7,173 nt of DNA from a virus (IMGVR_UViG_2687453466_000006), one strand, 5' to 3'. Positions 1-7,173 are shown, numbered from the stretch's first letter. The notes: generated from the sequence alone by a model not told the origin. Translations and numbers: made by a program.

Positions 1-54
1 CATCCAACCGCAGCATGTTCTTGCTTAAGACGTGCTGCGGCATAATCCCAATGA

Positions 55-798
55 TTACTCCCTGACAGGGTTCGTAGGCCACTCAATATCAGGTGCAGTT
101 GATGTATCAACACGGTTCAGCAACACCCGATATTTTTTCCAGGCTTCCAGCAATGAGGTTTCTTCCTCCGTTGCGATTTCCAGATCTACAGCATCCTGAA
201 GTGGCGCAATATGCTCACTGGCTACCTGCATCAGGCTGTTTTTTGTTTCTTCCGCCTCCCGAATCCGGAACAGTTTTTCTGCTTCTGCATCTTTCACCCA
301 GGCTGTACCGTTCCACTTCTGAAACTCCCCTTCCGGCGATAACCAGGTAACATTTTCCGGTAACGGACCGAGTTCAGAAATAAATAACGCGTCCCCTGAC
401 GCTACGTCATAAACCGTTTTACCCCGATGATCTTCAACGAGATGCCACGATGACTCATCACTGTTGAAAACAGCCACGAAGCCAGCTGGAATAAGGGTGT
501 TGCGCTGCTTATGCTCTATAAAGTAGGCATAAACACCCAGCAGCATTTTGGAATAACCGACACGGGCAGACTTCACCACATTCACCTCACGGATGTAGTC
601 GCTGCCCATCGCATTCATGATGGCCCGCTGAAAGGGCAGTGTTTCCCAGCGCCCTTCCTGGTATGCGGATTCTTTCGGGAGATAGTAATTAGCATCCGCC
701 CATTCAACGGCGGTCTGTGGCTCCGGCCTGAACAGTGAGCGAAGCCCGGCGCGGACAAAATGCCGCAGCCTGTTAACCTGACTGTTCGATATATTCAC
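55..798 (-). CDS. Chimeric prophage-remnant ORF (247 aa): terminase large subunit (lambda gpA-like) N-terminal ~103 aa fused in frame to tail-fibre assembly protein (lambda Tfa-like) C-terminal ~144 aa; probably a pseudogene
   Basis: ORF track 55..798 minus. ATG at 798..796, TAA at 57..55. Residues 1-103 ([18 protein letters not shown]...EHKQRNTLI) match the lambda gpA N-terminus as I remember it; residues 104-247 ([12 protein letters not shown]...[11 protein letters not shown]) match the lambda Tfa C-terminus. Junction at about nt 487-492. The start overlaps the upstream Nu1 gene by 26 nt (773..798), as in lambda Nu1/A. Resembles the adjacent aaaD/tfaD pseudogene pair of K-12 DLP12. Confidence 0.8.
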
Positions 799-1318
799 TC
801 AGCAACCCCGGTATCAGTTCATCCAGCGCGGCTGCTTTGTTCATGGCTTTGATGATATCCCGTTTCAGGAAATCAACATGTCGGTTTTCCAGTTCCGGAA
901 AACGCCGCTGCACCGACAGGGGGATCCCGTCGAGAATACTGGCAATTTCACCTGCGATCCGCGACAGCACGAAAGTACAGAATGCGGTTTCCACCACTTC
1001 AGCGGAGTCTCTGGCATTTTTCAGCTCCTGTGCATCGGCCTGCGCACGCGTAAGTCGATGGCGTTCGTACTCAATAGTCCCTGGCTGGAGATCTGTCTCG
1101 CTGGCCTGCAGCAGTTCTTCAACCTCCCGGCGCAGCTTTTCGTTCTCAATTTCAGCATCCCTTTCGGCATACCATTTTATGACGGCGGCAGAGTCATAAA
1201 GCACCTCATTACCCTTGCCACCGCCTCGCAGAACGGGCATTCCCTGTTCCTGCCAGTTCTGAATGGTACGGATACTCGCACCGAAAATGTCAGCCAGCTG
1301 CTTTTTGTTGACTTCCAT
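773..1318 (-). CDS. nohD: Terminase small subunit, lambda Nu1 homolog (181 aa)
   Basis: ORF track 773..1336 minus begins at a TTG; the first ATG (1318..1316) gives [39 protein letters not shown]..., which I recognise as near-identical to lambda Nu1 including its N-terminal helix-turn-helix region. Sits immediately downstream of a lambda-type cos site. Symbol is by resemblance to K-12 DLP12. Confidence 0.9.
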
Positions 1319-1545
1319 TGCACATTCCACGGACAAAAACAGAGAAAGGAAACGACAGAGGCCAAAAAGCTCGCTTTCAGCACCTGTCGTTTCCTTTCTT
1401 TTCAGGGGGTATTTTAAATAAATACATTAAGTTACGACGAAGAAGAACGGAAACACCTTAAACCGGAAAATTTTCATAAATAGCGAAAACCCGCGAGGTC
1501 GCCGCCCCGTAACCTGTCGGATCGCCGGAAAGGACCCACAAAATG
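1319..1545. other. Lambda-type cos packaging site (cosB with R-site-like motifs, cosN 12-nt cohesive-end sequence at 1496-1507, presumptive cosQ side at about 1508-1545)
   Basis: The reverse complement of 1381-1507 reads GGGCGGCGACCTCGCGGGTTTTCGCTATTTATGAAAATTTTCCGGTTTAAGGTGTTTCCG..., which is the lambda left end with a few substitutions (from memory). CGTTTCC-type motifs at 1348-1358, 1384-1394 and 1449-1457 sit where the lambda R1/R2/R3 Nu1-binding sites lie. Confidence 0.8.
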
Positions 1546-1706
1546 ATAATAATTATCATCTACATGTCACAACGTGCATCTACGCCATCAAACCACGTCA
1601 AATAATCAATTATGACGCAGGTATCGTATTAATTGATCTGCATCAACTTAACGTAAAAACAACTTCAGACAATACAAATCAGCGACACTGAATACGGGGC
1701 AACCTC

Positions 1707-1901
1707 ATGTCAACTAAGAACAGAACCCGCAGAACAACAACCCGCAACATCCGCTTTCCTAACCAAATGATTGAACAAATTAACATCGCTCTTGAGCAAA
1801 AAGGGTCCGGGAATTTCTCAGCCTGGGTCATTGAAGCCTGCCGTCGGAGGCTAACGTCAGAAAAGAGAGCATATACATCAATTAAAAGTGATGAAGAATG
1901 A
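1707..1901 (+). CDS. ylcI: Small conserved prophage protein, YlcI/YnfO-like (DUF3950), 64 aa; possible ribbon-helix-helix fold
   Basis: ATG at 1707 with a GGGG Shine-Dalgarno-like element 7 nt upstream. Basic N-terminus (KNRTRRTTTRN) followed by IRFP...MIEQINIALEQ...FSAWVIEACRRRL, which looks like a strand-helix-helix pattern. Same position relative to cos as in lambda and DLP12. Confidence 0.75.
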   Translation: MSTKNRTRRTTTRNIRFPNQMIEQINIALEQKGSGNFSAWVIEACRRRLTSEKRAYTSIKSDEE

Positions 1902-2065
1902 ACATCCCGCGTTCTTCCCTCCGAACAGGACGATATTGTAAATTCACTTAATTACGAGGGCATTGCAGTAATTGAGTTGCAGTTTTACCACTTTCCTGAC
2001 AGTGACAGACTGCGTGTTGGCTCTGTCACAGGTTAAGTAGTTTGAATGATTAGCAGTTATGGTGA

Positions 2066-2272
2066 TCAGTCAACCACCAGGGAATAATCCTTCATATTAT
2101 TATCGTGCTTCACCAACGCTGCCTCAATTGCCCTGAATGCTTCCAGAGACACCTTATGTTCTATACATGCAATTACAACATCAGGGTAACTCATAGAAAT
2201 GGTGCTATTAAGCATATTTTTTACACGAATCAGATCCACGGAGGGATCATCAGCAGATTGTTCTTTATTCAT
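2066..2272 (-). CDS. ybcW: Small prophage protein of unknown function, YbcW-like (68 aa)
   Basis: ATG at 2272..2270 with GGAG 8 nt upstream on the minus strand. Translation [40 protein letters not shown]... is recognised as YbcW-like. Convergent with ylcI and divergent from ybcV. Confidence 0.75.
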
Positions 2273-2557
2273 TTTGTCGCTCCATGCGCTTGCTCTTCAT
2301 CTAGCGGTTAAAATATTACTTCAAATCTTTCTGTATGAAGGTTTGAGCACGTTGGCCTTACATACATCTGTCGGTTGTATTTCCCTCCAGAATGCCAGCA
2401 GGACCGCACTTTGTTACGCAACCAATACTATTAATTGAAAACATTCCTAATATTTGACATAAATCATCAACAAAACACAAAGAGGTCAGACCAGATTGAA
2501 GCGATAAAAACGATAATGCAAACTACGCGCCCTCGTATCACATGGAAGGTTTTACCA

Positions 2558-2968
2558 ATGGCTCAGGTTGCCATTTTTAAAGAAATATTCGATCAAGTGC
2601 GAAAAGATTTAAACTGTGAATTGTTTTATTCTGAACTAAAACGTCACAATGTCTCACATTATATTTACTATCTAGCCACAGATAATATTCACATTGTGTT
2701 AGAAAACGATAACACCGTGTTAATAAAAGGACTTAAAAAGGTTGTAAATGTTAAATTCTCAAGAAATACGCATCTTATAGAAACGTCCTATGATAGGTTG
2801 AAATCAAGAGAAATCACATTTCAGCAATACAGGGAAAATCTTGCTAAAGCAGGAGTTTTCCGATGGATTACAAATATCCACGAACATAAAAGATATTACT
2901 ATACCTTTGATAATTCATTACTATTTACTGAGAGCATTCAGAACACTACACAAATCTTTCCACGCTAA
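2558..2968 (+). CDS. ybcV: Prophage protein of unknown function, YbcV-like (DUF1398 family by recollection), 136 aa
   Basis: The ORF track extends to a TTG at 2435. I call the start at ATG 2558 ([19 protein letters not shown]...), which has GGAAGG 8-9 nt upstream. An in-frame ATG at 2516 has no Shine-Dalgarno element. Confidence 0.75.
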
Positions 2969-3060
2969 ATCATAACGTCCGGTTTCTTCCGTGTCAGCAC
3001 CGGGGTGTTGGCATAATACAATACATGTACGCGCTAAACCCTGTGTGCATCGTTTTTAAT

Positions 3061-3125
3061 TATTCCCGGACACTCCCGCAGAGAAGTTCCCCGTCAGGGC
3101 TGTGGACATAGTTAATCCGGGAATA
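3061..3125. repeat. Pair of perfect 10-bp inverted repeats (TATTCCCGGA / TCCGGGAATA) separated by 45 bp, upstream of bor
   Basis: Arms at 3061-3070 and 3116-3125 by direct inspection. Lies in the 290-bp ybcV-bor intergenic region. Function unknown. Confidence 0.4.
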
Positions 3126-3258
3126 CAATGACGATTCATCGCACCTGGCATACATTAATAAATATTAACAATATGAAATTTCAACTCATTGTTTAGGGTT
3201 TGTTTAATTTTCTACACATACGATTCTGCGAACTTCAAAAAGCATCGGGAATAACACC

Positions 3259-3552
3259 ATGAAAAAAATGCTACTCGCTACTGCGCTGGCCCTGCTTATT
3301 ACAGGATGTGCTCAACAGACATTTACTGTTCAAAACAAACAGACAGCAGTAGCACCAAAGGAAACCATCACCCATCATTTCTTCGTTTCTGGAATTGGGC
3401 AGAAGAAAACTGTCGATGCAGCTAAAATTTGTGGCGGCGCAGAAAATGTTGTTAAAACAGAAACCCAGCAAACATTCGTAAATGGATTGCTCGGTTTTAT
3501 TACTTTAGGCATTTATACTCCGCTGGAAGCGCGTGTGTATTGCTCAAAATAA
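3259..3552 (+). CDS. borD: Bor outer-membrane lipoprotein (serum-resistance moron), 97 aa
   Basis: MKKMLLATALALLITGCAQQ... has a signal peptide with lipobox ITG|C. I recognise it as near-identical to lambda Bor. It is convergent with Rz, which is the lambda arrangement. Confidence 0.95.
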   Translation: MKKMLLATALALLITGCAQQTFTVQNKQTAVAPKETITHHFFVSGIGQKKTVDAAKICGGAENVVKTETQQTFVNGLLGFITLGIYTPLEARVYCSK

Positions 3553-3583
3553 TTGCATGAGTTGCCCATCGATATGGTCAGCT

Positions 3584-4045
3584 CTATCTGCACTGCTCAT
3601 TAATATACTTCTGGGTTCCTTCCAGTTGTTTTTGCATAGTGATCAGCCTCTCTCTGAGGGTGAAATAATCCCGTTCAGCGGTGTCTGCCAGTCGGGGGGA
3701 GGCTGCATTATCCACGCCGGAGGCCGTGGTGGCTTCACGCACTGACTGACAGACTGCTTTGATGTGCAACCGACGACGACCAGCGGCAACATCATCACGC
3801 AGAGCATCATTTTCAGCTTTCGCATCAGCTAACTCCTTCGTGTATTTTGCATCGAGCGCAGCAACATCACGCTGACGCATCTGCATGTCAGTAATTGCCG
3901 CGTTCGCTAGCTTCAGTTCTCTGGCATTTTTGTCGCGCTGGACTTTGTAGGCGATTGCGTTATCACGGTAATGATTGACCGCCCATGACAGGCTGACGAT
4001 GATGCAGATAATCAGAGCGGATATAATCGCGGTTACTCTGCTCAC
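3584..4045 (-). CDS. rzpD: Spanin inner-membrane subunit (i-spanin) Rz, 153 aa
   Basis: Near-identical to lambda Rz ([10 protein letters not shown]...QKYINEQCR), with an N-terminal transmembrane segment. Start is placed at GTG 4045..4043, overlapping the endolysin TGA stop (GTGA), by analogy with the lambda ATGA overlap. An alternative GTG at 4057 would give 157 aa. Confidence 0.85.
3643..3825 (-). CDS. rzoD: Spanin outer-membrane lipoprotein subunit (o-spanin) Rz1, 60 aa, embedded in the +1 frame of Rz
   Basis: ATG at 3825..3823. [24 protein letters not shown]... has lipobox VVG|C and a proline-rich C-terminus ([15 protein letters not shown]), near-identical to lambda Rz1. Lies entirely within Rz in a different frame. 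Confidence 0.85.
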
Positions 4046-4539
4046 TGTTGCCCCCACAAACAGACTTCACGCTCAATCTCACGACGAGTCATCAGGCCTT
4101 TCCATTGCTTACCGCCAGCGTATGTCCAGCGACGCAGCTGATCACATGCGCCTTTGATATCGCCCTGGTTTATTTTGCGAAGAAGCGTCGATGTTCTAAA
4201 ATTGCCAGCACCCACGTTGTAAACGAATGAGTAAAGAGCGCCGCGCGTTGTTTCCGGTATATCGACTTTGATATACGGGTTAATTTGTCTGGCGACAGTG
4301 GCAAGGTCTTTATTCAAGAGTGCTTTGCATTCTGCTTTGGTATACGTTTTACCGAGCATGATGTCTTTTCCGGTGTGTCCGTGACATACAGTCCATACAC
4401 CAACAATATCTTTGTATGGTATGTAGCTGACACCTTCCAGACCATCGTTACCACTTGGGCCAGTGATTAACACTGATGCTATAGCAATTGCTCCGCCACC
4501 AATAGCAGCAGCAACGGCTTTTCGTAATGATGGAGGCAT
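4042..4539 (-). CDS. rrrD: SAR (signal-anchor-release) endolysin, phage 21 R-type lysozyme, 165 aa
   Basis: ATG at 4539..4537. The N-terminus has a Gly/Ala-rich weakly hydrophobic segment ([18 protein letters not shown]) typical of SAR domains. E35, D44 and T50 are present at the catalytic triad positions of T4-lysozyme-like R21 (by recollection). Start overlaps the holin stop by 1 nt (TAATG). Confidence 0.93.
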
Positions 4540-4754
4540 TATTCACCTCTCGCAGCCTTGCGCTTATCTTCTTTAATCTTGAAATAAAGGTTTGTCAGGT
4601 ACGTCAGCAGGCCAAATACCAGGCTACCCAGCACACCTATTGCTGCCCACTGTGAGGGAGTGACTTTATCTAGCAGCTGTAAAAACCAGTACCCGGCACT
4701 ACCTGCTGAGGTGCCATAGGCGACACCCGTTGTTAACTTATCCATGGATTTCAT
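4539..4754 (-). CDS. essD: Class II holin (pinholin, phage 21 S-type), 71 aa with dual start Met1/Met4
   Basis: ATG at 4754..4752 and a second in-frame ATG at 4745..4743 (MKSMDK...), the S21 antiholin/holin dual-start arrangement. Two predicted transmembrane segments and a charged C-terminus ([13 protein letters not shown]). GAGGTGG Shine-Dalgarno-like sequence upstream. Confidence 0.9.
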
Positions 4755-4863
4755 AACCCCACCTCGCAGACAAAGCGGGTGTAAATTGAGGGAATACTAC
4801 GAAACGTAACAGACTCGGAGTCAGTGAATAACTCAGGTATTGGGTTATCAGCTAATATCGAGA

Positions 4864-4899
4864 CTCAAAAAATGGAAAAACCCGCTCGACGGCGGGTTT
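4864..4899 (-). terminator. Putative intrinsic terminator oriented toward the lysis genes (tR'-like)
   Basis: The minus strand reads AAACCCGC-CGTCGA-GCGGGTTT followed by TTCCATTTTTT: an 8-bp stem with a 5-bp GC core, a 6-nt loop and a U-rich tract. On the plus strand no T-tract follows it. Lies about 110 nt upstream of the holin start. Confidence 0.5.
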
Positions 4900-4943
4900 A
4901 AGCTGTGTGACGAAGTAACCACTCTTAACAGCATAACCAATTT

Positions 4944-4957
4944 TTTACGTACGTAAA
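4944..4957. repeat. Perfect 14-bp palindrome TTTACGTACGTAAA, 7 bp from the IS5 left end
   Basis: Self-complementary by direct inspection. Overlaps a weak sigma70-like candidate on the minus strand (TTTACG, 16 nt spacer, TATGCT). Confidence 0.4.
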
Positions 4958-4964
4958 CCACTAA

Positions 4965-4980
4965 GGAAGGTGCGAACAAG
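4965..4980. repeat. IS5 left terminal inverted repeat
   Basis: GGAAGGTGCGAACAAG; matches the right end in inverse orientation at 15 of 16 positions. Confidence 0.85.
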
Positions 4981-4987
4981 TCCCTGA

Positions 4988-6013
<1,026 letters not shown>

Positions 6014-6144
6014 AAACTGGGGATAACGCCTTAAATGGCGAAGAAACGGTCTAAATAGGCTGATTCAAGGCATTTACGGGAGAAAAAAATCGGCTCAAAC
6101 ATGAAGAAATGAAATGACTGAGTCAGCCGAGAAGAATTTCCCCG

Positions 6145-6160
6145 CTTATTCGCACCTTCC
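6145..6160. repeat. IS5 right terminal inverted repeat
   Basis: CTTATTCGCACCTTCC; reverse complement GGAAGGTGCGAATAAG. Confidence 0.85.
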
Positions 6161-7173
6161 TAGGGGATTTACCTGATGTCACTTTTGAAGAGGCCTGCCT
6201 AAGATGGCTTGAGGAAAAAGCTGATAAAAAATCTCTCGATTCAGATAAAAGCCGGATTGAGTTCTGGCTTGAACATTTTGAGGGTATAAGGCTTAAAGAT
6301 ATCTCGGAGGCAAAGATTTACTCTGCTGTAAGCAGAATGCATAACAGAAAGACGAAAGAAATATGGAAACAGAAAGTTCAGGCCGCCATCAGGAAAGGTA
6401 AAGAACTGCCTGTTTATGAACCAAAGCCAGTATCAACTCAGACAAAGGCAAAGCATCTTGCCATGATAAAGGCCATTCTCCGTGCTGCAGAACGCGACTG
6501 GAAGTGGCTGGAAAAAGCGCCTGTCATCAAGATACCAGCGGTCAGAAACAAGCGAGTCAGATGGCTGGAAAAGGAGGAAGCAAAACGCCTTATTGATGAG
6601 TGCCCCGAACCACTGAAATCTGTCGTCAAGTTTGCGCTGGCAACTGGTCTGAGAAAGTCGAACATCATAAATCTGGAATGGCAACAAATCGACATGCAGC
6701 GACGAGTTGCCTGGGTGAATCCAGAAGAGAGCAAATCAAACCGCGCCATTGGTGTGGCGCTGAACGATACCGCCTGTAAAGTGTTGCGTGATCAAATAGG
6801 CAAGCATCACAAATGGGTGTTTGTACATACCAAGGCGGCTAAGCGAGCAGATGGAACATCAACGCCTGCGGTCAGGAAGATGCGCATCGACAGCAAGACA
6901 TCATGGCTATCAGCTTGTCGTCGTGCAGGAATTGAAGATTTCCGTTTCCATGACCTCAGACACACCTGGGCAAGCTGGCTGATTCAGTCAGGCGTCCCAT
7001 TATCAGTGCTTCAGGAAATGGGCGGATGGGAGTCCATAGAAATGGTTCGTAGGTATGCTCACCTTGCGCCTAATCATTTGACAGAGCATGCGAGGAAAAT
7101 AGACGACATTTTTGGTGATAATGTCCCAAATATGTCCCACTCTGAAATTATGGAGGATATAAAGAAGGCGTAA
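6161..7173 (+). pseudogene. Phage-type tyrosine integrase, 5'-truncated by IS5 (N-terminal arm-binding region and start codon missing); longest ATG-initiated ORF is 6337..7173 (278 aa)
   Basis: The reading frame of ORF 6337..7173 stays open upstream to the IS5 boundary (in-frame stop only at 6115-6117, inside IS5), encoding ...[55 protein letters not shown], typical of an integrase core-binding domain, with no in-frame start codon. The C-terminal catalytic domain is intact: TGLRKSN (box I Arg), HDLRHTWAS (HxxR), [15 protein letters not shown] (Trp and catalytic Tyr). TAA at 7171-7173. Confidence 0.85.

Follow-up and report, generated by a model that had tools for sequence, protein, structure and literature searches.

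In Escherichia coli MG1655, De Paepe and coworkers (De Paepe et al. 2014, PMC3945230) have previously described the cos carried by DLP12, a defective lambdoid prophage, and proposed, without demonstrating it, that cos breaks occur there. According to that work, lambda and DLP12 share 3353 bp of homology at 98% identity, extending from R/Rz to nu1/A with cos in between, and recombinants of lambda with DLP12 outnumber those with Rac or Qin by about 100-fold. The right-hand junctions lie immediately beside cos in 10 of 19 cases and beyond it in 3 of 19, all the lambda-DLP12 recombinants tested were active, including three with a right junction past cos, and the DLP12 nu1 was functional once recombined into lambda. 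This clustering of junctions could also result if only the phage copy were broken. The DLP12 cos, the break idea and the functionality of the small terminase NohD are already known for this exact locus.

Lambda itself (NC_001416) carries a complete gpA together with its head and tail genes, whereas DLP12 lacks them and there is no processing in cis. Concerning packaging that starts from a chromosomal site, Sternberg and Weisberg reportedly found in 1975 that the cos of an unexcised lambda prophage starts packaging into host DNA, giving 'docL' particles, and in 1992 Kotani et al. are said to have cut the E. coli chromosome in vitro with lambda terminase and to have named nohA and nohB. A passage of PMC8008629 likewise traces packaging from a chromosomal prophage cos into host DNA to Sternberg and Weisberg (1975, Nature 256:97). 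The initiation and the one-way course predicted for DLP12 are the same as for the unexcised lambda prophage, but the latter has its own terminase, whereas DLP12 would need a helper.

The Qin prophage of K-12 hosts an orphan lambda-type cos as well, accompanied by the Nu1 homologue nohA and lacking gpA, with identical cosQ and cosN; K-12 has no cos besides these two. It differs from the DLP12 site in its R3 variant, which is G54A and not C53T, and in its deletion partner, which is stfQ. The cosN of Qin maps to about position 1,636,545 of MG1655, on the minus strand. Since it is ~1.06 Mb away from the DLP12 cos and convergent with it, the pair is unable to bracket a packageable unit.

Another related system is that of the cos-type PICIs, such as EcCICFT073, which have no TerL of their own and whose cos is cut and packaged by the terminase of a lambda or phage 80 helper (PMC6739421). 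These elements excise, replicate and are capsid-sized, and their cosB, which is not of the phage type, is used together with Rpp, an adaptor by which the helper TerS is retargeted (PMC6739421). DLP12, in contrast, shows the phage's own cosB, a plain Nu1, a truncated intD and no second cos within 61 kb, and a PICI-like satellite was rejected on the phage-type cosB, the truncated integrase and the missing second cos.

The stretch of DNA analyzed here, referred to as the window, comprises 7173 nt and is 100% identical over all of them to the chromosomes of the E. coli K-12 strains DH1, DH5alpha/NEB5-alpha, JM109 and XL1-Blue. In MG1655, the DLP12 prophage matches positions 1-4964 and 6160-7173 of the window at 100% identity, its gene order and annotation agree with those of the window, and the cos region is without any difference. 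This region of cos, nohD (formerly nohB), aaaD' and tfaD' in the prophage DLP12 (qsr') lies at about 580.4-582.1 kb of NC_000913 and is the same locus, not a relative. Membership of DLP12 is given by both identity and synteny with the annotated locus, a tRNA-Arg gene flanking the truncated integrase at the position of argU/intD in MG1655. On these grounds, the window represents the late, right-hand end of the defective (cryptic) lambdoid prophage DLP12, in its DH1/DH5alpha-lineage version. Hence, publications on the MG1655 region apply to it base for base, and the site, being the DLP12 cos itself, is a known object and not a new family member. The features of the window, in the order of the DH1 annotation, are as follows.

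55-492, minus strand: 'tfaD, C-terminal part of a tail-fibre-assembly protein (Caudo_TAP, residues 125-244 of the 247-aa fusion ORF), annotated as a pseudogene and in frame with the gpA remnant
490-798, minus strand: aaaD', large terminase gpA remnant, residues 1-103 of 641, a RefSeq pseudogene
773-1318, minus strand: nohD (RefSeq annotation), intact small terminase (Nu1/TerS) of 181 aa
next: ylcI, ybcW, ybcV and bor
next, minus strand: rzpD, rrrD and essD
4959-6160: IS5
last: integrase pseudogene without its N-terminus, adjoining the tRNA-Arg gene

An Rfam scan of the window gave a single match, a full-length RF02111 (IS009) at 98-296 on the minus strand inside the tfaD remnant, which scores 227.8 bits, where the gathering score is 117, and bears no relation to cos.

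With respect to MG1655, the DH1/DH5alpha lineage has lost positions 565,829-577,187 beyond the lysis genes (xisD to quuD, nmpC), IS5 alone remaining in their place. The genes absent are xisD, exoD, renD, emrE, ybcK-ybcO, rusA, quuD and both nmpC fragments. On one side (flank 4755-4964) IS5 joins DNA that lies ~210 bp upstream of essD, while on the other (flank 6160-7173) it adjoins an intD 5'-truncated by roughly its first 50 codons. Both flanks are unlike MG1655, which implies more than one event. Since the deletion takes the quuD region, where the late promoter should lie judging from lambda, late-operon transcription of essD, rrrD, rzpD and nohD is probably absent from DH1, DH5alpha, JM109 and XL1-Blue.

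The state of the two terminase subunits is very different. NohD matches the Pfam profile PF07471 (Phage_Nu1) over positions 1-164 of 164 (E = 6e-100). Its only changes with respect to lambda Nu1 are R70L, A75T and L132I, residues 1-69, including the DNA-binding domain, being identical. Thus, the intact Nu1 gene claimed by an earlier note on this DNA is indeed a full-length Phage_Nu1 gene with three substitutions. The large subunit, which the same note had seen as an N-terminal fragment of gpA, is precisely that: it is 100% identical to lambda gpA over residues 1-103, diverges afterwards, covers positions 3-60 of 247 of the GpA_ATPase profile and, in a Pfam search of the remnant, gave no match to the gpA nuclease domain. 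A functional lambda terminase holoenzyme, with complete gpA ATPase and nuclease, is therefore not encoded in the window. Since gpA ends at residue 103, before the catalytic Glu179, reported as essential in a passage of PMC6379665, and without the nuclease domain, DLP12 is unable to process its own cos, and the statement that the element cannot cut its own cos holds.

The remnant aaaD' overlaps nohD by 26 nt, the same as the overlap of Nu1 and A in lambda, and continues in frame into 'tfaD. What RefSeq lists as two pseudogenes is a single open frame of 247 aa (55-798, minus strand) with the GTG start of gpA, which encodes a gpA(1-103)-Tfa fusion. As the fusion overlaps nohD exactly as A overlaps Nu1, its translation is possible if nohD is transcribed. 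The junction, found in 366 complete E. coli genomes, marks the deletion of the head and tail genes.

A minor observation concerns residue 70 of NohD (window 1109-1111), which is Leu in NohD and in the Nu1 of phage PhiR29_1 (see below) and Arg in lambda. In phage 80 TerS, mutations that escape interference by the PICI Rpp were selected at residues 68-70 (D68G, L69R, R70P; PMC6739421). The correspondence between Leu70 and these escape sites may be a coincidence.

To describe the cos site itself, the window was mapped on NC_001416, where lambda bp n corresponds to window position 1508-n for n up to 137. Over 1319-1545, the alignment with the circularized lambda cos gives 97.2% identity over 216 nt (E = 8e-106). 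Positions 1496-1507 read AGGTCGCCGCCC, which on the other strand gives GGGCGGCGACCT, the left cohesive end of lambda; the chance expectation for a given 12-mer in the window, on both strands, is about 0.0009. The subsites are the following.

1531-1537, minus strand: cosQ heptamer GGGTCCT, the packaging-termination signal (lambda 48473-48479), exact and at the lambda-equivalent distance from cosN
1496-1507, minus strand: cosN, 12-nt cohesive end GGGCGGCGACCT (lambda bp 1-12)
1508|1507, minus strand, and 1496|1495, plus strand: putative cosN nicks, placed by lambda homology
1458-1490, minus strand: I2 spacer between cosN and cosB (lambda bp 18-50), identical, with its extent as in PMC4856287
1444-1455, minus strand: R3 core TGTTTCCGTTCT (lambda CGTTTCCGTTCT, bp 53-64), the TerS site closest to cosN
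1417-1429, plus strand: best IHF-consensus match (WATCAANNNNTTR) in the I1 region (lambda bp 79-91), a consensus match only
1388-1399, plus strand: R2 core CGTTTCCTTTCT (lambda bp 109-120), identical, inverted relative to R3 and R1
1343-1354, minus strand: R1 core CGTTTCCTTTCT (lambda bp 155-166), identical

Order, orientation and spacing of the subsites are those of lambda, and cosQ, cosN, I2, R2 and R1 are identical to it. From lambda 48487 to bp 52, a segment that covers the ~22-bp cosN, I2 and the cosN-R3 spacing, there is no substitution or indel. The best IHF-consensus match shows one mismatch in lambda and in DLP12 alike, and the change T85A concerns a base that the consensus leaves as N. 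By its subsites, the cos is of lambda packaging specificity, not of the 21 or N15 type. The earlier note is thus sustained as regards cosN, for which the flanking bases are also identical to lambda, and as regards the R-site motifs of cosB, all three of which are present, with R2 and R1 unchanged and R3 differing at bp 53. Just upstream of cosQ, a sigma-70-like match (1543-1570, minus strand; GTGACA, a 16-nt spacer and TATCAT, 10 of 12) points towards cos and nohD; a promoter and terminator scan of 700-2100 yielded only consensus-level matches, in numbers near those of shuffled sequence, with 3 sigma-70-like sites against 1.2 expected from shuffles.

Relative to NC_001416, there are seven substitutions between 48471 and bp 102, and two more by the Nu1 start codon.

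48471 A>G and 48472 C>T: beside cosQ, immediately outside the heptamer
48486 T>C: between cosQ and cosN
C53T: first base of the R3 core
A73G, T85A and T102C: between R3 and R2
AA>TG at 187/188: upstream of the Nu1 start codon

The relevance of these positions can be judged from the work of the Feiss laboratory (PMC4669245), in which bp 56 and 59 of R3 are critical and bp 58 is important for recognition by TerS, the distance between cosN and R3 is critical and the 7-bp cosQ is highly conserved, while the importance of I2 is described in PMC4856287. In DLP12, bp 56, 58 and 59 are unchanged and C53T lies outside them. C53T is the first base of the CGTTTCC core common to all three lambda R sites, and the same T is found in the phages PhiR29_1 and 2H10. 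None of the aligned phages shares the T at 48472 (window 1538). On the base-by-base alignment with lambda cos, every critical position reported in cosQ, cosN and the R sites is unaltered. A functional lambda cos cosmid requires only lambda 48442-178 (PMC4856287), a segment that corresponds to window 1331-1568.

A loss of 1 bp between R2 and R1, at lambda bp 138, was considered as a DLP12 lesion and rejected, given that the G in question is also missing from PV340536, DE3, PhiR29_1 and Qin. At this place (window 1371), NC_001416 reads GCGAGGCTTTTT, while the resequenced lambda PV340536, DE3, PhiR29_1, Qin and DLP12 all read GCGAGCTTTTT, so the extra G looks like a peculiarity of the NC_001416 reference record.

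A very similar phage cos is that of PhiR29_1 (PV340556), a temperate relative of lambda with host ECOR13, deposited as a complete genome, which matches 1319-1545 at 99.1% over all 227 nt. It shows all four cosB variants of DLP12 (53T, 73G, 85A and 102C), together with 48471G and 48486C, and differs at two positions only, 1538 (5' of cosQ) and 1322 (ahead of the start codon). The Nu1 of PhiR29_1 and NohD are 100% identical and, unlike in DLP12, this full-length Nu1 is followed downstream by A, W, B and the head genes, with a full-length gpA. According to a passage of PMC13190303, the PhiR series consists of temperate phages related to lambda and serves in plaquing assays, and PhiR29_1 is taken as an infectious phage from its database record and from the plaquing of the series reported there. 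The cosB variants being natural in PhiR29_1, and its Nu1 being identical to NohD, a TerS with the lambda DNA-binding domain works on this same cosB in a phage. The base-level intactness of the site, with all variants from cosQ to R1 except 1538 occurring in a deposited phage of identical TerS, is what the present comparison adds to the previous description.

Altogether, we consider it very probable that the DLP12 cos is a structurally complete cos of lambda specificity, left beside nohD as the remainder of a deletion, which is inert alone and which a helper terminase could cut. The substitutions of cosB shared with PhiR29_1 and the conservation of the critical positions indicate that the site should be cleavable in trans by a lambda-specificity terminase, while being inert on its own; its actual cutting in the chromosome we infer. 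The recognition by such a terminase foreseen in the earlier note finds support in the unchanged cosQ, cosN, I2, spacing and R3 critical positions and in the match to PhiR29_1, as judged from alignment. As for its further idea of a terminase-dependent break hotspot, it had already been put forward in PMC3945230, where the junctions cluster beside cos.

The behaviour expected in the presence of a helper phage can be outlined by analogy with lambda. An infecting or induced phage would supply the lambda-specificity terminase, TerS and IHF would bind the R3-I1-R2-R1 array, and TerL would nick cosN at 1508|1507 on the minus strand and at 1496|1495 on the plus strand. After cutting, terminase stays bound to the cosB end (PMC4856287); in DLP12 it would be kept on the end carrying cosB and nohD and would translocate towards lower window coordinates. 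The path in DH1 would run through nohD, appY, ompT, envY, ybcH, nfrA, nfrB, cusSR/CFBA and pheP, towards the ent/fep genes. The other end, on the cosQ side, would be left free and exposed to recombination and to nuclease attack. Chi (GCTGGTGG) was not found on either strand of the window, and the first correctly oriented Chi for a nuclease entering the cosQ-side end is ~13 kb away.

Termination of packaging needs a downstream cosQ and cosN (PMC4669245). Over the 61 kb downstream, neither strand gave a match to the 22-bp cosN core when up to 5 mismatches were allowed, and a cos-to-cos packageable unit was rejected, this region giving only 12-mers with 2 mismatches and without cos context. As there is no downstream cos within 61 kb, packaging would proceed without normal termination and mature transducing particles should be rare; initiation at the DLP12 cos is plausible, its normal completion is not. 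Hence, the main effect would be recombination with incoming lambdoid phages near cos, and not efficient transduction. A search of the literature found no sequencing-based evidence for packaging from the DLP12 cos.

Among the other explanations, the one that survives best sees the DLP12 cos region above all as a source of homology and modules, with R, Rz, cos and nu1 passing into phages by exchange, and with chromosomal cutting and packaging as minor processes. We regard it as somewhat probable, and it should be noted that it overlaps with the explanation preferred above and differs from it only in the dominant consequence. The lambda-like late region of roughly 3.3 kb, the ~100-fold excess of lambda-DLP12 recombinants over those with Rac or Qin and their viability (PMC3945230) are in line with it, and so is the fact that the next 61 kb contain no terminal cos, due to which finished transducing particles are unexpected. 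It is, however, compatible with cutting of the chromosomal copy, and the 10 of 19 junctions beside cos are what a break at cos predicts, PMC3945230 invoking breaks in both partners.

Returning to the helper-cleavable cos, a stronger version of it is that a helper terminase cuts the orphan site often enough for packaging of host DNA, or for a decoy or suicide break. If true, it could mean one-directional packaging of appY, ompT, envY, nfrAB, cus and ent, as a cos-phage analogue of lateral transduction, or else a chromosomal decoy or suicide break that reduces the phage yield or kills the infected cell. We find this version very doubtful, since lambda grows normally on K-12 and no terminal cos follows within 61 kb, two facts that speak for small packaging and decoy effects.

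That the cos is decayed and non-functional, the changes at 53, 73, 85, 102, 48471, 48472 and 48486 crippling terminase binding or termination, seems to us equally improbable. Such decay could be expected of a prophage that has been under no packaging selection since its deletion, and it would be consistent with C53T altering a base conserved across all three lambda R cores and with position 48472 (window 1538) being unlike that of every phage aligned. Nevertheless, deposited phages, PhiR29_1 among them, show all the cosB variants as well as 48471 and 48486, no change touches cosN, I2, the 7-bp cosQ or the critical positions of R3, and all the lambda-DLP12 recombinants tested were active, three of them having acquired a right junction past cos (PMC3945230).

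Finally, we give next to no credence to cos and nohD being kept for the benefit of the host, as a terminase decoy or through a NohD that poisons the phage holoenzyme and confers partial phage resistance: although nohD is perfectly intact among truncated neighbours, Qin provides K-12 with another orphan cos and Nu1 homologue, and PICIs interfere with phage packaging via a TerS-like protein (PMC6739421), lambda grows well on K-12, NohD is a normal Nu1 that is identical to that of a phage and works in lambda, cos and nohD have diverged from lambda about as much as the late region around them, in keeping with recent decay and not with selection, and with the quuD region and (by homology) the late promoter deleted in the DH1 lineage the expression of nohD is doubtful.

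The importance of the helper-cleavable DLP12 cos beyond annotation is small, as it lies in the best-studied bacterial genome, where the cos site and the Nu1 homologue are already named and annotated, and a published study has already used this region, both for the cos-proximal recombination with lambda and for the functionality of DLP12 nu1. Regarding its wider distribution, 3983 of the 5426 complete genomes of E. coli contain a lambda-type cos with at least 80% coverage of 1319-1545. Occurrence in about three quarters of the genomes makes helper-dependent cutting a general possibility, not one special to the window. The cloning strains DH1, DH5alpha, JM109 and XL1-Blue have two lambda-type cos, those of DLP12 and Qin, which could be cut if lambda terminase were present. 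Among E. coli genomes with any match, the number of cos places has a median of two and reaches up to eight, and 37 of these places are on plasmids.
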